64,000 nt of DNA from Oscillospiraceae bacterium. GTDB taxonomy: Bacteria; Bacillota; Clostridia; Oscillospirales; Ruminococcaceae. The stretch lies in NCBI GenBank assembly GCA_021199355.1, contig JAJQIF010000016.1, positions 10,230-74,229 on the forward strand, given 5' to 3'. The translations under genes were made by a program, and so were the position numbers. The notes beneath the pieces are model-generated. The model had not been told where the DNA came from, ran no database searches, and saw only the letters and a list, made by a program, of their open reading frames with translations. This document shows, in pieces, positions 3,845 to 29,343 of this stretch; position 1 is the first letter of the stretch, and each line of letters begins with the position of its first letter.

Positions 3845-4195
3845 GGGGGCGTAAAGGTTTCGACGGGGATTCCGAAGGCGAATAAGCGAGTAGAGAACGC
3901 ACTGATCTCTTTAACCTGTGCAAACCTAAATTTTAAACGACAATAATAGTTTAGAATTGGCTGCTGCCTAATAGCGGCCCGTCCTGCCGATGAGTACTGC
4001 GGCATCGGTCTGGGCGTCGATTAGCAGTGAACGTTCTGCGGTAACTCCGGTAGCCGCAGGATGAATTACCGGATACCGAAGTCACAAGCCTGCTTACCGG
4101 CGTGAGATTTCGGAAATCCAAAAGATAAGCTACACTCGTAGAAAGTTCTCCCAAAGAGTTTTCGGACATGGGTTCGATTCCCATCGCCTCCACCA
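3845..4195 (+). ncRNA. ssrA: tmRNA (SsrA)
   Basis: 5' GGGGGCG pairs with 3' CGCCTCC, followed by ACCA. T-arm GGGTTCGATTCCC. Internal tag frame ..AAC GAC AAT AAT AGT TTA GAA TTG GCT GCT GCC TAA TAG (..NDNNSLELAAA**) at about 3936-3974. Confidence 0.92.
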
Positions 4196-21356: not shown

Positions 21357-22538
21357 TTACAGAGGTAAATCTTTCTTCTGGAATCTGACTGCGCCGACTG
21401 CGTAGCAGACCACAGCTATTACAACCAAAGCTATAAGCTTCGGAACGAAAGCATAATCAACGGCACCGGAGCCGACCGTTCCGAGGGCTTCAACGTCAAA
21501 CAAACCTACTATAGTCAGATTATTGAAGACTCCGAGCATTTCGGCGCCAATTCCCATGCTGACCATCGTATCGGAACCGAACATTCCGAGAAGCGAGCAG
21601 AGGAAGAACCAGACATTGAGTCCGCCGCCGAGAGCCATAGCATTCTTGCTGAGGTTGAATACACAGCTTGCCATGTAGCAGATGCTCGCCATTGCCTCCG
21701 CTAAGAGATAGATTCCGCCGTAGAGAGCCAGGAATTTCACTACATCCACTTCACCGGTAAAACCTCTTGTCGCCACAAGCCTTACTATCAGTCCACAGCC
21801 GACCATTATCAGAGGCGTGACTATCATGTATATAAGCTGAGTGATGACAACAGCGCTTCTCTTTGTCGGTGTGGATAAGACATAAGCCATCGAGCCCTTG
21901 TCGACCTGGTCAACGAAAAGCTCGTTGCCGGCGAAGATGATGAAGAGTATAATCGGAAGTAAGCACATGATGGTGAAGTACATCTGATTGAGCATAGCGG
22001 ATGTATCCATCTCGGTCATGGTGTTGAGCATATCCGATGACATACCCATCATCTCAAACATGTTAGTCATCATTGTGCTGACATCCAAGGTGTCGCCCGT
22101 GAAGACGCCTTCGGTGGCGCCCAAGGCATAGACATACTCGAAGTTTGTGATATAGACATCAAGTCCTACGTCCGATTCCGAAAGAAGCTCAGCCGATTCT
22201 GCGAATTTCTCAACCGACAAATCGAGCTCTTCCGACTGCGCGGACATCATCTCGAAAACAGTCTCGTACATGGTCGTGTCGTCGGAAGATGCAAAGTCGT
22301 CATAGCTCAAGTCGGTTCCCATCATCTCGTTATATGCCGCCAGAACATACAGGTGGCTGTAGAAATCGGTCTGGGCGTCGGTATAATCGGTCGACTCCGT
22401 TCCGGCAATGAGGTTTCCGGCGTAGGTGGTGACAATCGTCATCAGGCATAAGACCACCGTGCAGGCAATCAGAAGCACTCTGTTTGCCCGAAGGCTCTGC
22501 TTGAACAGAGGTATTGAAAATACTTTCGTTACTTTCAT
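21357..22538 (-). CDS. ABC-2 type transporter permease
   Basis: 393 aa. N-terminal TM, large extracytoplasmic segment, C-terminal multi-TM bundle. Overlaps the upstream ATPase gene by 4 nt. Confidence 0.7.
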   Translation of the reverse strand: MKVTKVFSIPLFKQSLRANRVLLIACTVVLCLMTIVTTYAGNLIAGTESTDYTDAQTDFYSHLYVLAAYNEMMGTDLSYDDFASSDDTTMYETVFEMMSAQSEELDLSVEKFAESAELLSESDVGLDVYITNFEYVYALGATEGVFTGDTLDVSTMMTNMFEMMGMSSDMLNTMTEMDTSAMLNQMYFTIMCLLPIILFIIFAGNELFVDQVDKGSMAYVLSTPTKRSAVVITQLIYMIVTPLIMVGCGLIVRLVATRGFTGEVDVVKFLALYGGIYLLAEAMASICYMASCVFNLSKNAMALGGGLNVWFFLCSLLGMFGSDTMVSMGIGAEMLGVFNNLTIVGLFDVEALGTVGSGAVDYAFVPKLIALVVIAVVCYAVGAVRFQKKDLPL

Positions 22539-23434
22539 TTCTTTTTCTCCTCTTCTCTGTATATGTTCATGAAGTATTCCTCCAGATTCTCGTGGGTTTC
22601 GTCAACGGTAACGACTTCAAGGTTCCTAAGAGCCTTGAAAAGCCCGTCGGTTTCGTTTGCAAGAAGACCTATTGTCGCTTCGTTGCCGTTCATGGTCGCC
22701 TCGGGCATCCTCTCCGCAAATTTCTTTGCCGAGGGCTGATTGCCGAAGACAATTTTATAGTTTCTCTTGGTTCCGTGCCTGAGGTCGGAAAGGCTCAGGA
22801 CGCTTTCAATCTTGCCGTTGCCGATTATGGCGACTCTGTCGCAGACGTCCTCGATTTCCTCGAAGATGTGGCTCGACATGAAGATTGTTCTGCCCTTGTT
22901 CTTTTCCTCACGAACAAGCTCAAGGAAGGTTTCTCTCATCAACGGGTCAAGACCTGTTGTCGGTTCGTCCATGACGAGGATTTCCTTGTCGCCCATCAGA
23001 GCCGCAACGATTGCGGTCTTCTGCTTCATGCCCTTGCTCATTCGCTTTAAGTTAGCCGAAGGGTCGAGCCCGAGCTTGTCGATAAGGTAGTTCATATAGG
23101 TGAAATCCTTGACGCCAAGGAATTCCGCCTGAATTTTAAAGAAATCGGTTCCTGTCTTTACATCCGGGAAGGCAATCTCACCGGGGATGTAGCTCACGTT
23201 TTTCATGACCTCGGGGGCATTCTTCCAAGGATTTATGCCATTTACGTCCACCTCGCCGGAATCGGGCTTAAGAAATCCCATCATGTGGCGGATAGTAGTG
23301 GTCTTGCCGGAGCCGTTGGTGCCGAGGTATCCGAAGACCTCGCCCTTCTTGATGTCGAGGGAGATATCAAAGACACCACGATTATATCCATAGTCTTTTG
23401 TGAGATGCTGTACGGAAATAACGCTGTCGCTCAT
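22535..23434 (-). CDS. ABC transporter ATP-binding protein
   Basis: GTNGSGKTT, MSKGMKQK, ILVMDEPTTGLD. Confidence 0.9.
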   Translation of the reverse strand: MSDSVISVQHLTKDYGYNRGVFDISLDIKKGEVFGYLGTNGSGKTTTIRHMMGFLKPDSGEVDVNGINPWKNAPEVMKNVSYIPGEIAFPDVKTGTDFFKIQAEFLGVKDFTYMNYLIDKLGLDPSANLKRMSKGMKQKTAIVAALMGDKEILVMDEPTTGLDPLMRETFLELVREEKNKGRTIFMSSHIFEEIEDVCDRVAIIGNGKIESVLSLSDLRHGTKRNYKIVFGNQPSAKKFAERMPEATMNGNEATIGLLANETDGLFKALRNLEVVTVDETHENLEEYFMNIYREEEKKK

Positions 23435-24345
23435 CTGCTCACCCCCTCGAAATGATGACCTGTGTCATAGAAGCTCATGAAGTAGTCCTCAAGTGTGAAC
23501 GGAATCTCGACGAAATCCGCAATCTCATAATCTCCTAAGCACTGTGTCAGCTCGCCGACCCTGTCAGCCTCAATCTGGACTTTTGCACGAAGCTTGCCAT
23601 GGTTTTTAGATGTAAACCTGAACGGCTTCTCGATAAATCTTAAGTACGAGCCCTCGTCCTTGAATGTGACGCGATAGATTCTGTCGTGGCTCGCCTTGAG
23701 CTCATCCGACTTGAATTCCGAAACGATACTGCCGTCACGGATTATTGCAATCCTGTCGCACGAAGCGTCGACCTCGTGGAAGATGTGGGACGAGAGGAAG
23801 ATGGTCTTGCCTCTTGCCTTTTCCTCTTTTACAAAGTCAATAAACGTCTCCTGCATGACCGGGTCGAGTCCCGATGTCGGTTCGTCCAATATCAGAATAT
23901 CCGGGTCGTGCATGAAAGCCGTAACAACCGCAAGCTTTCTCTTGACGCCAAGACTCATCCGCTTGATGCTGATGTTCGGGTCGAGGTCGAACTTGTCAAG
24001 AAGCATCTTTAAGTAATCGTCGTTTTTTGTGTTCCGCATGCCCTCCATCATCTTAAGGAAGCCTGTTCCGGAAAGTCCCTGCGGGAGGGTGACCTCTCCG
24101 GGGAGATAGCCGACGGTGTTCTTGAGTTCCGCCGAGTGCTCCCAGCTGTCTTTACCTGAAATAGAGGTTTTGCCTTTTTCGGGCTTTGAAAAGCCCATCA
24201 GATGTCGTATTGTAGTGGTTTTCCCGGCACCGTTAGGTCCGAGAAAGCCGTAGCATTCGCCTTTGTCCACTTGAATAGACACATCAAACACGCCACGACC
24301 GTGACCGTAGTCCTTTGTCAGATGGTCTACAGAAATAACCGGCAT
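23431..24345 (-). CDS. ABC transporter ATP-binding protein
   Basis: GPNGAGKTT, MSLGVKRK, ILILDEPTSGLD; AAGGAGG SD. Confidence 0.9.
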   Translation of the reverse strand: MPVISVDHLTKDYGHGRGVFDVSIQVDKGECYGFLGPNGAGKTTTIRHLMGFSKPEKGKTSISGKDSWEHSAELKNTVGYLPGEVTLPQGLSGTGFLKMMEGMRNTKNDDYLKMLLDKFDLDPNISIKRMSLGVKRKLAVVTAFMHDPDILILDEPTSGLDPVMQETFIDFVKEEKARGKTIFLSSHIFHEVDASCDRIAIIRDGSIVSEFKSDELKASHDRIYRVTFKDEGSYLRFIEKPFRFTSKNHGKLRAKVQIEADRVGELTQCLGDYEIADFVEIPFTLEDYFMSFYDTGHHFEGVSR

Positions 24346-24363: not shown

Positions 24364-24448
24364 ATTATCCAACAACCTGTTGTATGATTAGTATTATACT
24401 CAACCGAAATCGGGTGTCAACCCAACAATTTCCAAAGTGTCGGATAGT
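24364..24448 (-). promoter_or_regulatory. Promoter/operator module A (TTGACA-16-TATAAT plus ACAAC-CT-GTTGT operator) driving the ABC-2 operon
   Basis: About 85 bp homologous to 28668-28754, including an identical 24-mer ATTATCCAACAACCTGTTGTAT. -10 at 24393-24398, -35 at 24415-24420 (minus strand), operator at 24372-24383. Confidence 0.6.
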
Positions 24449-24463
24449 TCGCGGACGGTTCAA

Positions 24464-25444
24464 TTACGAAAAATACCTGCAAAATTCTTTGTAATTATAA
24501 TCCTTTTCAGGCTTGCAGAGGACGGCGAAGTCTATCGAGTCAAACAGCGCCTCCGCCGGCTTTCCGGCATAGGAGAAGCCCATAATCGCCTCATAAAACA
24601 GCCTTGATACAAGGCTTGCATCGTTTCCGTATATTCCGCAACCGAATGCGCCCAAGATCAAATGGCGATATTTTTCCGTTGCGGCGACCGTCAGCATTCC
24701 CCGAATACGGGTTTCGAGCATGCTTTCATACTCTTCCTGCGTCATCCCCTCGAGCCCCATGCGAATCATCGGTGCTGAGCACGACATGACCGATATCGGG
24801 AACGGCTCTGCGAGCGTTTCGGAAGAGTGATTTTTTATAACCTCGACATTTTCCGACATGACAATCCCGTCTGAGCCCATGTGGGTCTTGTGGGCGTTGT
24901 TATAGTCGTAATACTTCTTTGCGTTCTCGCTTTCGAGGGAAAGAAGGAGCGACGAACGCCGGCAGAGGTCTTCCTCCTGCGCACTTGCGCCCTTGCGGGT
25001 GCGTCCACCGGGCTCGGTAGCCGAAGCGAGATTCAAAACCAATACCTTCGGTGAGAAGTCCCCCGCTTCCTTCATTTCAAGATATCTTTTCTTTGCAAGA
25101 ACAAGCGCATCTTCGTTTTCACAGCCGAAAATCCGGCTTATATCGCGTTCATCGTGTGCTTCTGTAACCGGTGCCGACTTTTCAATAGCTTCGATATCTT
25201 CGGGGAGATAGACTTTTGCTTCTTCCATTTCGCCGACAGAGAATCTGAGATTTATTTCCTTGCCGTCCTTTTCATAAGAGCCTTTTTCGAGAATGCCGAG
25301 CGTGTCCTCAAGAATCCTGATATTTTCAAGCCTGCGCTTTTCTCTTTCGGCATCACGAACCTTGATTTGTTCCTCTGTCAGACCCTTGTTTTCCGCTTCG
25401 CGCATCTTCTCGGCAAGCTCTTTCATCTTTTCTTCATCAGGCAT
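24464..25444 (-). CDS. PARG-like macrodomain protein (TIGR02452/DUF2263-type)
   Basis: 326 aa; LNLASATEPGGRTRKGASAQEEDLCRRS matches the GG-X6-8-QEE bacterial PARG signature. C-terminal GAFGCG macrodomain diphosphate loop. Confidence 0.7.
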   Translation of the reverse strand: MPDEEKMKELAEKMREAENKGLTEEQIKVRDAEREKRRLENIRILEDTLGILEKGSYEKDGKEINLRFSVGEMEEAKVYLPEDIEAIEKSAPVTEAHDERDISRIFGCENEDALVLAKKRYLEMKEAGDFSPKVLVLNLASATEPGGRTRKGASAQEEDLCRRSSLLLSLESENAKKYYDYNNAHKTHMGSDGIVMSENVEVIKNHSSETLAEPFPISVMSCSAPMIRMGLEGMTQEEYESMLETRIRGMLTVAATEKYRHLILGAFGCGIYGNDASLVSRLFYEAIMGFSYAGKPAEALFDSIDFAVLCKPEKDYNYKEFCRYFS

Positions 25445-26147
25445 TTTTGCTCCGCCTTTCCTTAAGCTCTCTGAATACGTCGTCGCATTCTTCGCGAATG
25501 TTCAGATCCGCAACCCTGTCGAAGGCTGTGTGCCCCGGGTTAATCTGGACTATGGTGGCGTCGCTCCGTCTGTGGTTCCAATAAACGCCGCCATAGTAGC
25601 CGTTGGTGCCGATTACTATAATCAGGTCGGCTTTTGAAATCCAGTTCTGCGCGTCCTTGACGCCTTCGTCCCACAGCCCGATGTGGCTGTAGAGCTCCCA
25701 CGGGAGAATCGTCCCGCCGCAGGAATCGCACTTGGGGAGTTCATCCTTGTTCCATATCTCATAGCCGTCAAAGTGCTTGCCGCAATCCGAACAGCGGTTA
25801 ATCTGGAAGCTTCCCTGAATCTCGGCGACGTTCTGTGAGCCTGCGATGGTGTGCATGCAGTCCTCGTTCGTCGTGATGACACCTATGAGCTTGCCTTCGC
25901 GTTCAAGATCCGCCAAGGCATAATGACTCAGGCTCGGCTTATAGTGGTGCATGGTTTTGACATAGGACTTAAGAAACGATTCGCTTTCAAAACCTCCGGG
26001 GCGAAGATTGCGGGAGAGCTGACTGTAGGTCACTCCTCCGCCGGAAATCGAGATTCCCGCACCCGTGATTGCGACTATACCGCTACTGTTGTCTACATAT
26101 TCCGCAAATTTCTGTATCTTGTCGTCGAAGCCCGATTTAGAGAACAT
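25437..26147 (-). CDS. SIR2-family (sirtuin-like) protein B, catalytic His replaced by Gln
   Basis: TGAGISISGG, TTNEDCMHTIAGS, AEIQGSF (canonical xxxHGS), Zn-ribbon CSDCG..CDSCGG, IGTNG, VQINP. Confidence 0.7.
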   Translation of the reverse strand: MFSKSGFDDKIQKFAEYVDNSSGIVAITGAGISISGGGVTYSQLSRNLRPGGFESESFLKSYVKTMHHYKPSLSHYALADLEREGKLIGVITTNEDCMHTIAGSQNVAEIQGSFQINRCSDCGKHFDGYEIWNKDELPKCDSCGGTILPWELYSHIGLWDEGVKDAQNWISKADLIIVIGTNGYYGGVYWNHRRSDATIVQINPGHTAFDRVADLNIREECDDVFRELKERRSKNA

Positions 26148-26886
26148 TTTCGCACTTCTCCCATCCGTCCATCACTTCGCCAAGAACCTCTGCGGCGTCG
26201 GCGTGGATATTCCAGTCGGCAACGCTGTCAAGCGGAGTTTCCGAAGGATTAATCTGGACGAGCTTTGTATCCTTTCTCATCTTCTTGAGATACTCGTCGC
26301 TTCTGAACCCTGTTGTGCCGATGATAATGACCAAATCCGCCTCGGAAATCATCTCCTGCGCTTTCTTCATGCTTTCTTTGGAAACCTGCTCAGATATCTT
26401 GTTTTCCCTGCAGAAGGTTGTCGGCATCAGCGGTGAACCGCACTTTTCGCAGGTGGGTGTGTGCCCGTGATTCCAGATTTTATAATTAAGGTATCTTGCG
26501 CCGCAGTCCACGCAGATGTTGTCCCCGAAGCTTCCCTGAAACTCGACGACGTTCTTTGAACCGGCAATCGTATGCAGGCAGTCCATGTTCTGGGTGACTA
26601 TCCCATAGAGCAAGCCGTGCTTTTCGAGGGTCGCAAGCTGTTTGTGAACCTCGCTCGGACCCTTTTCGAAGGTGGCATCCAAAAATGATGTCTTGACTAT
26701 TTTATAGAAATCATCCGGGTTGCTTCTTACGAACGAAGGGGAGAGCACCTGCCTTGAATTCATGAGCCCGACGCTCTGCTTAAGGCGTCTCATCCCGTAC
26801 AAATAGGAGATGCCGGCACCCGTTACCGCGACTGTTTTGCCGCTTTGTTCCATATATTCTCTTAGCTGACTTGATTCGTATCTCAT
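26137..26886 (-). CDS. SIR2-family (sirtuin-like) protein A, catalytic His replaced by Gln
   Basis: TGAGISYLYG, TQNMDCLHTIAGS, VEFQGSF, CVDCG..CEKCGS, IGTTG, VQINP. 11-nt overlap with the next gene. Confidence 0.7.
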   Translation of the reverse strand: MRYESSQLREYMEQSGKTVAVTGAGISYLYGMRRLKQSVGLMNSRQVLSPSFVRSNPDDFYKIVKTSFLDATFEKGPSEVHKQLATLEKHGLLYGIVTQNMDCLHTIAGSKNVVEFQGSFGDNICVDCGARYLNYKIWNHGHTPTCEKCGSPLMPTTFCRENKISEQVSKESMKKAQEMISEADLVIIIGTTGFRSDEYLKKMRKDTKLVQINPSETPLDSVADWNIHADAAEVLGEVMDGWEKCENVL

Positions 26887-26916: not shown

Positions 26917-26962
26917 TTACAAACACCGACCCACCAAATCGTTGCTTCTTCGGTGGGTGGTG
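26917..26962 (-). terminator. Terminator after the nitroreductase operon
   Basis: Minus strand CACCACCCACC...GGTGGGTCGGTG followed by TTTGTAA. Confidence 0.55.
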
Positions 26963-27004
26963 CTTTATCTATATGTGACTTTGTGGAGGTACCAACGATT
27001 GCAG

Positions 27005-27697
27005 TTACTTCCAGGTGAAGTTTTCCTTTCCCGCACCGAGCTCGAAGAAATATTTGCTGATTCCGAGGTCTGCTTTTGAGAACGAGCCCTCGGGAACGGT
27101 CATCGAAACTTCGTTGCCGGTGCCTTTGATTGTGAACTCCTGACGGTTCATGCCCGTCGGAGCCAGTAGAGCCGCTTCAACTCCCGCCTTGAACCAGTCG
27201 GGGGCTTCGCCTTCATAGGAAGAAACTTCGCTTGCGGGCTTTGACTTGTGAGGAACGCCCTGCTCCATTCCGTAGCCGACGGCTACAACTCCAATAATTT
27301 TCGCATTTTCCGGAGCGTCAGAATTCTTTCTTGCGTTCTTCTTGCTGTACATTCCGCCTATCCACCAGGTGTTCAAGCCAAGTGTCTGGGCATACAGCAT
27401 AAGGTCGGCACTGACATATCCGAGCACCTCGTCGGTCGACGCCTTGTCGGGACCGGCTAAAATCATATAGTTCAGGACGTTCTTCGACATAGTCGCAGCC
27501 ATGATTCCGGGCATTGCCTCCTTGTTGTTCAGGACAAGCCGGATGTTCAAGGCATATTTTTTGTTGTTCTCCCCGATTCTTTCGTTGAGCTTTTCGACAA
27601 TGTCCGAAGAGAGCTTATCAGTCTTGTACTTGCGGACGGTGTGCCGTTCGCTCATCGCCTTCTTCATTGCCTCCTGTGTGACTTCATAAGTTGCCAT
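27005..27697 (-). CDS. Nitroreductase family protein
   Basis: 230 aa; RHTVRKY N-terminal motif and overall nitroreductase-fold pattern. Confidence 0.7.
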   Translation of the reverse strand: MATYEVTQEAMKKAMSERHTVRKYKTDKLSSDIVEKLNERIGENNKKYALNIRLVLNNKEAMPGIMAATMSKNVLNYMILAGPDKASTDEVLGYVSADLMLYAQTLGLNTWWIGGMYSKKNARKNSDAPENAKIIGVVAVGYGMEQGVPHKSKPASEVSSYEGEAPDWFKAGVEAALLAPTGMNRQEFTIKGTGNEVSMTVPEGSFSKADLGISKYFFELGAGKENFTWK

Positions 27698-27730: not shown

Positions 27731-28261
27731 TCAGATGTAGTTGGTGCTGAGTGAGACAGTCAGGTCTCTCGACTCTGCTTCACCGCTCAGGCTATAGCCG
27801 ATTGCGGCGGCGGAAACAGGTCTGAAGCCTTCCGGAATGCCTATCTTCGCACACATGTCCTTGTTTCTTGCAAGACCCTGAACAGGTCCCCAGAGATAGA
27901 TATTTCCAAGTCCCGCGTCAGTTGCGGCAATCAACATATTCTCGATGACGCAAGCGGAGTTGGCATATTCAATTCCCGGTGCCATTTGTTCCTCTGAAGC
28001 GGAAACGAAGACAACGACCGGTGCTCCATAGAAGAAGTCTCTTGCCGGCATCTTCATAGCTGCGGCGGTGGACTGGTTGATTTCTTCGAGAATCTCACGG
28101 CTCTTGCATACTGTCAGGTGAAGAGAATCTCTCTTGCCTCCGCCGACCGGAGCCTGACAACCCGCCTTGACGATTTCGTCGATAACCTCGTCCGGAACAG
28201 CCTTTGTGGGGTCAAAGTCCCTTGTTGACTTTCTTTTTGCGATTGCTTCCGATGTTTGCAT
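27731..28261 (-). CDS. Nitroreductase family protein
   Basis: 176 aa; KRKSTRDF motif, small NfnB/FRase-like fold. Confidence 0.75.
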   Translation of the reverse strand: MQTSEAIAKRKSTRDFDPTKAVPDEVIDEIVKAGCQAPVGGGKRDSLHLTVCKSREILEEINQSTAAAMKMPARDFFYGAPVVVFVSASEEQMAPGIEYANSACVIENMLIAATDAGLGNIYLWGPVQGLARNKDMCAKIGIPEGFRPVSAAAIGYSLSGEAESRDLTVSLSTNYI

Positions 28262-28284: not shown

Positions 28285-28620
28285 TCAGGTTTCTTCATCC
28301 TGCTTGTGTATCCACACCCGGAAGGTTGTCACATATGGACAATCCTCCGGAAGCGTGGTATTAAACAGCGCCGTGTACAAAGTCAGTTTTCCGCAGTGGT
28401 TGCACTTCTTGAATCGTTCCTCATACACACGGCACAGATTCGTCTGGGTGTCAAGATATTCGCAGGGGTTGTCATAATGAATCCTCACCTTGCCGTCGGA
28501 GCCGATTGAGCGGGTGTAACAGCATTTTCCGCAACGGGTGCACAGGGAATCCCAGTCCTTTCGCCACTTAAGCCATTCCTTGAATACGCTTATGGCATAT
28601 CCGCCAGCCGAGTCACTCAT
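28285..28620 (-). CDS. YkgJ-family cysteine-cluster (CxxCxxCC) protein
   Basis: CTRCGKCCYTR ... CEYL ... CRVY ... CNHCG pattern. Confidence 0.7.
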   Translation of the reverse strand: MSDSAGGYAISVFKEWLKWRKDWDSLCTRCGKCCYTRSIGSDGKVRIHYDNPCEYLDTQTNLCRVYEERFKKCNHCGKLTLYTALFNTTLPEDCPYVTTFRVWIHKQDEET

Positions 28621-28662: not shown

Positions 28663-28754
28663 TTGACATTATCCAACAACCTGTTGTATAATATATATTA
28701 TACTCAGCTTGGAGGTATTATCAACCCCCAATTTTTCCGGAACTGTCGGATAAT
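28663..28754. promoter_or_regulatory. Divergent promoter/operator module B (TetR gene on +; ykgJ-nitroreductase operon on -)
   Basis: + strand: TTGACA(28663)-18-TATAAT(28687). - strand: TTGATA-16-TATAAT (28724-28697). Shared operator ACAACCTGTTGT at 28676-28687. Homologous to module A. Confidence 0.6.
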
Positions 28755-28773: not shown

Positions 28774-29343
28774 ATGAAAAAACAACCGGAAATCACAGAT
28801 AGAACAAGGCAAAAGTTTGTTGACTCCTTTTGGGCTCTGGCAAAGGAAAAGCCGGTTTCAAAGATTGCGGTGAGCGAGCTGACGCGACGTGCCGGCTACA
28901 ACCGCAGTACCTTCTATGAGTACTTTTTGGACACCGACGATTTATTGTCCTACGTCGAGGACAAGCTTATCGGTGAGGTCAAGGCAGTGGCTCAGAAATC
29001 CATGTCAGATGAGAAACCGCCAACGGAATTCTTCCGGATGGTATTTACCGCTATGAATGAGGAGATTTATATTCTCTTGGGTCCGAACGGGGACTCGAGC
29101 TTTTTGTCGAGGGTCAGAGCCGAACTGATTCCTCTCGCTTCGCAGTACATCCCCGTCCGTCCGGACTCAGAGAACTTCGACTATCTCGTCGCATTCGTCA
29201 ACTCCGCCATGTTTGGGCTCCTGGAGCGTTGGCATGAAAATAATAAGGACATCAGCCCGGAGGAAATCAGCGACCTGATGCAGAATCTGGTGTCCAGCGG
29301 CGTCAGGGGGTATATTGAGGGGAAGGGTACACTGAACGGATAA
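28774..29343 (+). CDS. TetR/AcrR family transcriptional regulator
   Basis: 189 aa with an N-terminal HTH, VSKIAVSELTRRAGYNRSTFYEYF. Confidence 0.85.
   Translation: MKKQPEITDRTRQKFVDSFWALAKEKPVSKIAVSELTRRAGYNRSTFYEYFLDTDDLLSYVEDKLIGEVKAVAQKSMSDEKPPTEFFRMVFTAMNEEIYILLGPNGDSSFLSRVRAELIPLASQYIPVRPDSENFDYLVAFVNSAMFGLLERWHENNKDISPEEISDLMQNLVSSGVRGYIEGKGTLNG

Follow-up and report, generated by a model that had tools for sequence, protein, structure and literature searches.

A stretch of 64,000 nucleotides from an Oscillospiraceae bacterium (GenBank assembly GCA_021199355.1, contig JAJQIF010000016.1, positions 10,230 to 74,229; hereafter the window) carries three adjacent genes on the reverse strand that may form an ADP-ribosylation module dependent on nicotinamide adenine dinucleotide (NAD+). 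Two sirtuin-like proteins, SirA and SirB, in which glutamine stands at the position of the catalytic histidine, would act as writers, and a macrodomain protein of the poly(ADP-ribose) glycohydrolase (PARG) type as the eraser. By analogy with known systems we hold, with moderate confidence, that these Gln-sirtuins outside class M and their partner constitute such a writer/eraser system, possibly serving the response to redox or xenobiotic stress. The module seems to be a hitherto undescribed relative of the switch formed by class M sirtuins (SirTM) and their macrodomain partners. Its three genes are the following:

26137-26886, reverse strand: SirA, a Gln-type protein of the SIR2 fold with Gln117 at the catalytic His position (open reading frame (ORF) of 249 aa)
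25437-26147, reverse strand: SirB, a second Gln-type paralog of the SIR2 fold with Gln111 at this position (ORF of 236 aa)
24464-25444, reverse strand: a bacterial-type PARG (macrodomain) hydrolase (ORF of 326 aa)

An earlier sequence-only reading of this DNA had described three genes overlapping by 11 and 8 nt, and the ORF coordinates match exactly, with sirA and sirB sharing 11 nt (26137-26147) and sirB and the PARG gene sharing 8 nt (25437-25444).

SirA and SirB are 38% identical to each other, and SirB has a shorter cofactor-loop and helical region. Both were recognised by the Pfam SIR2 model (PF02146, cut-off 24), SirA with an E-value of 4.5e-24 (85.8 bits) and SirB with 8.1e-20 (71.9 bits). 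In a phmmer search against all Protein Data Bank (PDB) chains the best matches were Sir2Tm of Thermotoga (E 3e-27) and Sir2-Af1 of Archaeoglobus (E 1.6e-24). AlphaFold2 (AF2) models reached a predicted local distance difference test score of 89.1 for SirA and 83.5 for SirB, residues 35-60 of the latter being of low confidence. Compared with the PDB by Foldseek, the SirA model was closest to Sir2Tm, Sir2Af1 and Sir2Af2, and the SirB model to Sir2Af2, Sir2Af1 and Sir2Tm; PfSir2A was also among the top ranks (27-30% identity, template modelling scores of 0.7-0.8, E of about 1e-18 to 1e-19). Thus, the sirtuin fold of both proteins is predicted with confidence. The assignment of a SIR2-family pair accompanied by a PARG-like protein, made in the sequence-only reading, is borne out by the Pfam and NCBIfam models and by the agreement of the AF2 and Foldseek results.

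The catalytic position was located by alignment in the phmmer search. SirA 'VVEFQGS' aligns with Sir2Tm 'VIELHGN' (His116), which places Gln117 opposite the catalytic base, and SirB 'VAEIQGS' aligns with Sir2-Af1 'VIHLHGS' (catalytic His116 position), placing Gln111 there, so that the HG motif of deacylases reads QG in both paralogs, as had been proposed from the sequence. In the other respects SirA and SirB resemble the sirtuins Sir2Tm, Sir2-Af1 and CobB in fold, in size (about 240 aa), in the Cys4 zinc ribbon (C125, C128, C146 and C149 in SirA; C119, C122, C140 and C143 in SirB) and in a series of motifs: the Rossmann-fold GAGIS (SirA 23-27, SirB 29-33), T(Q)N.D (TQNMD at SirA 98-102, TTNED at SirB 92-96) and the INP adenosine-ribose motif. 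The DxLHxxAG motif and both CxxC pairs were kept in the alignments to Sir2Tm and Sir2-Af1, and the loops IGTTG and IGTNG are present in SirA and SirB, respectively. The GAGIS, (T)QN.D/TTNED, zinc-cysteine and IGT(T/N)G elements listed in the sequence-only reading could all be located in both proteins. Apart from the Gln, both differ from these deacylases in three further elements. In place of the FR of GIPxFR, which was also noted earlier as missing, SirA has LK and SirB has YS; at the FGE loop the two read ISE and SHI, and at GTSxxVxP they read GTTGFRSDE and GTNGYYGGV, respectively.

In an alignment of 122 SirA and SirB sequences, residues G23, G25, S27, N100, D102, C125, C128, C146 and C149 (SirA numbering) are invariant. 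The only invariant histidines of the family are H81 and H105, and Sir2Tm also has His at both positions; therefore, a replacement base is not evident, and the check for a catalytic His supplied from elsewhere gave none. The same alignment contains no invariant Arg or Lys. The NCBIfam models of CobB and related deacylases scored far under their cut-offs (at best 142.5 against 320 bits for SirA, and 119.3 against 243 bits for SirB), and most members of both families are labelled 'hypothetical protein' by the NCBI Prokaryotic Genome Annotation Pipeline.

The Gln is, as judged from the available sequences, a family-wide trait. Searches at E<=1e-10 gave 243 homologs of SirA and 362 of SirB; among the best 120 SirA homologs the catalytic site is Gln in 117, Met in three and His in none. 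A scan with one genome per species yielded 28 loci (L001-L028), all from metagenome-assembled genomes (MAGs) and mostly from a few MAG projects, so they are not phylogenetically independent; three additional loci are designated L029-L031. The 28 loci contain 63 sirtuin ORFs, with Gln in 61, Glu in one and masked sequence in another (that is, 61 of the 62 that could be scored). The protein with Glu is a SirB-type paralog (L023:6717-7439, 'NVAELEGS'). A motif scan of all DNA fetched found 73 Gln codons at the site, 56 CAG and 17 CAA, and no His codon, while a His codon is a single third-position change away from a Gln codon. This synonymous turnover at the catalytic codon indicates that the Gln is under selection.

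When 1.84 billion cluster representatives were searched exhaustively, only seven were matched at E<=1e-30, followed by a steep fall to ordinary sirtuins of about 30-36% identity; the best 150 representatives comprised 15 with Gln, all of them top-ranked, 124 with His and a few with Trp, Phe, Tyr or Asn. A neighbour-joining tree built from 126 full-length representatives grouped all eight that carry Gln into one clade. This clade had only moderate bootstrap support, 42/100, and 49/100 when four Trp variants were included. P0370, P0378, P0420 and P0464 (loci L034-L037) belong to an adjacent sirtuin group that has Trp at the catalytic position, e.g. 'HVADIWHS', and shares the G(S/T)xGxY loop. One of them, P0370, is a solo gene located beside a TetR-like gene and a small GNAT gene. 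Linkage to PARG was found neither for P0370 nor for the solo Gln-type relative P0362, and the contig of P0378 is too short to judge it. A further sirtuin-like protein, P0403, has QG but has also lost GAGxS ('LTGDAIVKG') and lies outside the Gln family in the tree.

The product of the third gene belongs to the microbial PARG family, as shown by PF10021 (PARG_cat_microb; E 1.1e-26, 94.4 bits against a cut-off of 23.5) and TIGR02452 of NCBIfam (160.5 bits against 50); the only match to a MacroD-type model was insignificant (E 0.012, with 15.5 bits where the cut-off is 215). It could be aligned with the PARGs of Deinococcus radiodurans (5zdf, E 5e-27; 32% identity by tblastn) and Thermomonospora curvata (3sig, E 8e-25), proteins of the DUF2263/TIGR02452 type with which it shares the QEE pair and the GAFGCG loop. 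The GG-X6-8-QEE signature reported in the sequence-only reading was found as GG146-147-X8-QEE156-158 (PGGRTRKGASAQEED), with both catalytic Glu residues, and the diphosphate loop GAFGCG lies at 265-270. Both PGG[QHR]TRxGAxAQEE and GAFGCG are kept in all 120 PARG homologs listed, and the enzyme should be catalytically competent judging by these motifs. In contrast to the T. curvata and D. radiodurans enzymes, this subfamily has Q, H or R throughout in place of the third Gly of GGG, followed by a conserved TRxG, and the protein has an extra charged N-terminal extension of about 45 aa. Its genomic association differs too, since it is linked here to sirtuin genes, while the bacterial PARGs covered in a review accompany PARPs in several species (PMC8120803).

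The closest functional precedent is offered by the class M sirtuins, which are defined by the HG to QG change and by linkage to a macrodomain (Rack et al. 2015, PMC4518038). SirTM carries out robust protein ADP-ribosylation, which is reversed by the macrodomain protein of its operon, and has no appreciable deacylation activity; its Q137H mutant is inactive, Asn118 is needed for catalysis, and Arg192 is required together with Gln137 (PMC4518038). The module described here shares with SirTM the QG in place of HG, a sirtuin gene that adjoins or overlaps the gene of a hydrolase of the macrodomain superfamily, as in the operons of Streptococcus pyogenes and Staphylococcus aureus that include GcvH-L, and attached genes of flavin oxidoreductases, namely old yellow enzyme (OYE) and luciferase-like monooxygenase (LLM) in SirTM operons and nitroreductases here. 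As QG is a known hallmark of SirTM, it supports the writer/eraser reading, and ADP-ribosyl transfer with subsequent reversal might be expected by analogy.

Several features set SirA and SirB apart from SirTM. The supplement of PMC4518038 gives four class M motifs, GAGxSAx2Gx2Y, T[ST]N[VA]D, Cx3C and GVGx[NT]TP, and also a catalytic Arg (Arg192 in the S. pyogenes protein, SpySirTM). The corresponding segments of SirA and SirB are GAGIS(Y/I)..G, which lacks the SA/Y pattern, TQNMD or TTNED, CxxC and IGT(T/N)G, and the alignment of 122 sequences shows no invariant Arg or Lys. Since none of the four motifs was matched, SirA and SirB were not assigned to class M in spite of their QG. SpySirTM is reported to be only 10.6% identical to Sir2 (PMC8120803), while SirA and SirB are 27-30% identical to Sir2Tm, and the SpySirTM structure (5A3A) was not among the best 60 phmmer or the best 50 Foldseek matches of SirA and SirB in the PDB. 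The partner differs as well, being of the PARG type (PF10021/TIGR02452) instead of the zinc-containing MacroD type, and the sirtuins are organised in tandem arrays of two distinct paralog types. We regard SirA and SirB as a variant of the kind of system to which SirTM belongs, probably of independent origin. The literature searches brought up only general reviews and no description of a sirtuin-PARG operon, and the Iyer/Aravind survey of NAD and ADP-ribose systems held no passage relevant to the terms queried; together with the failed class M motifs and the PARG-type partner this agrees with the earlier remark that the configuration is unusual.

According to the mechanism that we infer, SirA and SirB would bind NAD+ through the sirtuin pocket (GAGIS, Asn100 and Asp102 of T(Q/T)N.D, and Asn213) and, after the release of nicotinamide, would pass ADP-ribose to an acceptor instead of deacylating lysine. 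Transfer rather than deacylation is proposed because the His base is absent and FR, FGE and GTSxxVxP, the elements of acyl-lysine peptide binding and of the cofactor loop, are remodelled. The co-translated PARG would then hydrolyse the ADP-ribose linkage and reset the system. The suggestion of the sequence-only reading that the operon is a writer/eraser system rather than a deacetylase thus retains its basis in the missing base, the intact NAD pocket and PARG signature and the SirTM precedent, although the loss of His is by itself no proof.

Another possibility is that the Gln-sirtuins are slow or atypical lysine deacylases, and that the macrodomain protein clears the O-acyl-ADP-ribose which they produce. 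They do belong to the superfamily of Sir2Tm and CobB, with 27-30% identity, macrodomains are known that deacetylate O-acetyl-ADP-ribose (PMC8120803), and the PDB entry 2h59, as its title states, shows the H116A mutant of Sir2Tm with a deacetylated peptide and 3'-O-acetyl-ADP-ribose. Against these stand the selection for Gln at a site where His is one base change off, the alteration of FGE, GTSxxVxP and the cofactor-loop FR, and the scores of every CobB model, all far under cut-off. Moreover, SirTM with its QG lacks appreciable deacylase activity (PMC4518038), and the hydrolysis of O-acyl-ADP-ribose is a property of macrodomains of the MacroD/TARG type and not of the PARG type (PMC8120803), which makes this explanation highly improbable. 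Equally improbable, in our estimate, is that SirA and SirB are inert pseudoenzymes or sensors, binding NAD or ADP-ribose in order to regulate the PARG or neighbouring redox enzymes. The loss of the canonical base and the short cofactor loop of SirB with its low-confidence prediction would fit this role; however, Asn100 and Asp102 are invariant, the equivalent Asn118 and the conserved Gln are both catalytically required in SirTM (PMC4518038), and such residues are usually lost in dead enzymes.

The gene-neighbourhood survey proposed along with the sequence-only reading showed that the association is recurrent. The 28 loci come from MAGs labelled Oscillospiraceae, Ruminococcus, Lachnospiraceae, Erysipelotrichaceae, Clostridiales or Bacillota, and the order SirA-SirB(n)-PARG, mapped by tblastn, is found in 23 of them, as well as in L029-L031. 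In the five exceptions SirA is followed directly by PARG (L012), the locus is cut by the contig end (L016, L018 and L027) or is rearranged (L028). Tight gene overlaps are confined to the closest relatives. Each of the 28 loci has exactly one SirA-type gene and one to three SirB-type genes, apart from L012, which has none. The presence of two paralogs is thus correct for the locus in the window, but not as a general rule, as an array holds one to four Gln-sirtuins, usually two or three. For example, L015 (6001-10683) has four of them, interleaved with the PARG and a nitroreductase gene, in L026 (1-3723) three flank the PARG gene, and in L031 (1920-8035) three adjacent sirtuin genes are accompanied by a fourth about 4 kb upstream. 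The co-occurrence of two distinct types suggests that SirA and SirB have non-redundant roles, e.g. as a heteromer or with different acceptors.

All of these genome loci except L022 come from MAG accessions with the prefixes JAJQ*, JAJB* or JAJP*; L022 (MSHM01000006.1, 'Zagget12') is a koala faecal MAG (PMC5697889). The carriers are uncultured gut Clostridia, their habitat being established for this koala faecal MAG, and it is possible that the distribution of the module is host- or diet-specific.

A writer gene followed by an overlapping macrodomain gene in a small operon is also the arrangement of DarT/DarG (PMC8120803), and it is conceivable, though unlikely, that the module is a toxin-antitoxin or anti-phage system of this kind, in which the Gln-sirtuins would be ADP-ribosylating or NAD-depleting toxins and the PARG an antitoxin that reverses the damage. 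The variation between one and four paralogs per locus is typical of conflict systems, and L031 is surrounded by Abi_2, RelB/PIN, TrbL and PrgI genes. However, DarT as the writer differs in fold from the sirtuins, the macrodomain of DarG is TARG1-like (PMC8120803), and the tight overlaps, as stated, do not extend beyond the closest relatives. PADLOC gave no convincing match for the three proteins: the anti-phage SIR2 systems (Thoeris ThsA, DSR, SIR2-HerA and pAgo-SIR2) were matched only marginally (E 0.007 to 0.04), and their partner genes are not linked, the neighbours being nitroreductase, ABC-transporter and TetR genes. When 72,556 plasmid records were searched by tblastn with the SirA and PARG sequences, only distant canonical deacylases (<=34% identity) and distant PARGs (<=32%) were matched, and there was no linked pair. 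The chromosomal context with nitroreductase, ABC-transporter and TetR genes is conserved in several lineages.

This context may help to place the module. Upstream of sirA and around the module, the window contains the following genes and elements:

27005-27697, reverse strand: TM1586-type flavoprotein of the nitroreductase family, 230 aa (PF14512, E 6.4e-60)
27731-28261, reverse strand: nitroreductase-family protein, 176 aa (PF00881, E 1.4e-18)
28285-28620, reverse strand: YcgN-like small protein with a Cys cluster, 111 aa (NCBIfam YcgN models, E 4e-17, under their cut-offs)
28774-29343, forward strand: divergent TetR-family regulator, 189 aa (PF00440 and PF14278)
28663-28692, forward strand, and 28724-28697, reverse strand: back-to-back consensus sigma-70-like promoters from the promoter scan, matching at 12/12 and 11/12 positions, respectively
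26921-26965, reverse strand: conserved RNA hairpin of 17 bp, located within the 118 nt that separate sirA from the nitroreductase gene
24393-24420, reverse strand: consensus sigma-70-like promoter (12/12) from the promoter scan, in the 118-nt gap after the PARG gene

Nitroreductase genes stay close to the module even where its other flanking genes vary. The 176-aa nitroreductase is the neighbour of sirA kept most often, lying upstream in L010, L011, L013-L015, L029 and L031, and the TM1586-type protein recurs near the sirtuin array in L001-L009, L015, L024 and L028. A role of the 176-aa protein as a BluB-type dimethylbenzimidazole synthase, which would have provided a link to CobB/CobT, was rejected, as it scored 27 bits against the BluB cut-off of 150. 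The YcgN-like gene, the first of a putative longer unit, recurs in 13 of the 28 loci. The TetR gene occupies the same position in L001-L009 and L015, TetR-like genes are located upstream in L020-L022, L024 and L027, and in L031 an Rrf2 regulator stands in its place. ABC exporters of the multidrug resistance (MDR) type also recur near the module. Taken together, the nitroreductase, YcgN-like, TetR/Rrf2 and MDR-type ABC neighbours suggest a response to redox or xenobiotic stress, in parallel with the flavin oxidoreductases (OYE, LLM) of SirTM operons.

The two opposed promoters at 28663-28724 are located between the TetR gene and the YcgN-like gene, and both of their -10 boxes are covered by a perfect palindrome of 18 bp, GTATAATATATATTATAC (28686-28703), which is identical in eight of the nine close relatives (L001, L002 and L004-L009). 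It was found by reading the sequence, the automated inverted-repeat search having given none, and is a candidate TetR operator. The hairpin at 26921-26965 is unusually stable (minimum free energy -25.2 kcal/mol, z -4.27, none of 200 shuffles as stable), and in nine related loci it shows higher conservation than the spacer around it. It has a poor U-tract and was not called by the terminator scan; it may act as a weak terminator, an attenuator or a stabiliser of the transcript. The promoter scan called none in the 118-nt gap upstream of sirA, while the 12/12 promoter at 24393-24420 follows the PARG gene. It starts a downstream ABC-transporter operon and marks the 3' boundary of the module. From this layout of promoters and hairpin, sirA, sirB and the PARG gene form a tight sub-unit. 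The three-gene operon of the sequence-only reading stands as such a sub-unit, but its limits may be wider, as it may be co-transcribed with the upstream YcgN-like and nitroreductase genes flanked by TetR. Judging by the sequence, it is probably the tail of a TetR-controlled unit comprising the YcgN-like gene, two nitroreductase genes, sirA, sirB and PARG, with read-through past the hairpin presumed.

In the downstream ABC operon (21357-24345, reverse strand) the genes of two ATPase paralogs in tandem, which share 44-45% identity, precede that of an ABC-2 permease, and the trio recurs beside the module in L024 with 49-66% identity. Elsewhere, the window contains a tmRNA gene (3845-4195, forward strand; Rfam RF00023, 166.7 bits) with the tag peptide DNNSLELAAA predicted by ARAGORN.

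Some observations weigh against a protein ADP-ribosylation switch linked to stress. The main difficulty is the PARG-type eraser, as an enzyme of the MacroD/TARG type would be the expected partner in a simple mono-ADP-ribosyl switch on proteins, whereas PARGs, both bacterial and canonical, cleave the bonds between riboses and do not remove the protein-proximal ADP-ribose (PMC8120803). The lack of an invariant Arg means that the chemistry may differ from that of SirTM, and no genes of GcvH-L, LplA2 or other carrier or target proteins like GcvH-L were found near the module. The title of PDB entry 2h59, cited above, implies that His mutants of Sir2Tm can still turn over. The link to stress is drawn only from the neighbourhood in loci that are not independent, and, while gene structure, folds, motifs, conservation and synteny could be shown, the transferase activity, its reversal by the PARG, the target and the stress link are all inferred.

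The specificity of PARG makes less conventional products conceivable, as PARGs cut ribose-ribose bonds and human PARG is, besides, the main hydrolase acting on ADP-ribosylated RNA in HEK293 cells (PMC11920425). One quite unlikely variant is that the Gln-sirtuins place ADP-ribose on a ribose hydroxyl, in which case the PARG-type partner would be no coincidence. The product would be oligo- or poly-ADP-ribose, or else RNA or a nucleotide carrying ADP-ribose, perhaps with initiation by one paralog type and extension by the other. A related explanation, unlikely in our view, is that they are NAD+ glycohydrolases or synthases of a signal nucleotide, which consume NAD+ or make a ribose-ribose-linked product that the PARG degrades. 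It would account for an intact NAD pocket combined with the loss of acyl-lysine-binding motifs, and for a partner from the sole macrodomain class specialised for ribose-ribose O-glycosidic bonds (PMC8120803). Yet the nearest functional precedent of a QG sirtuin is protein ADP-ribosylation (PMC4518038), the zinc-ribbon small domain, which is part of the substrate cleft of protein-modifying sirtuins, is fully conserved, and the loci inspected showed no effector-type gene linkage. The preferred reading remains a reversible writer/eraser module.

If SirA and SirB are a second lineage of Gln-sirtuins, this lineage would be closer to deacylases of the Sir2Tm type than SirTM is, and again tied to a macrodomain hydrolase and flavin oxidoreductases. 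The replacement of His by Gln together with the acquisition of a macrodomain partner would then look like a repeatable evolutionary route from a deacylase to an ADP-ribosyl writer, and the family would lend itself to comparative study of the Gln-based mechanism, which is still unclear. A further question would be what kind of linkage is cut by a PARG-type eraser in bacteria possibly devoid of a PARP. Were ADP-ribose placed on a ribose hydroxyl, these would be the first known sirtuin-fold makers of PARG-sensitive ribose-ribose linkages and a PARP-independent bacterial route to them. The tandem A and B paralogs are a test case for sirtuins that act as heteromers or divide their labour, and if the module has a role in xenobiotic or redox stress, it would be relevant to the microbial ecology of the gut.

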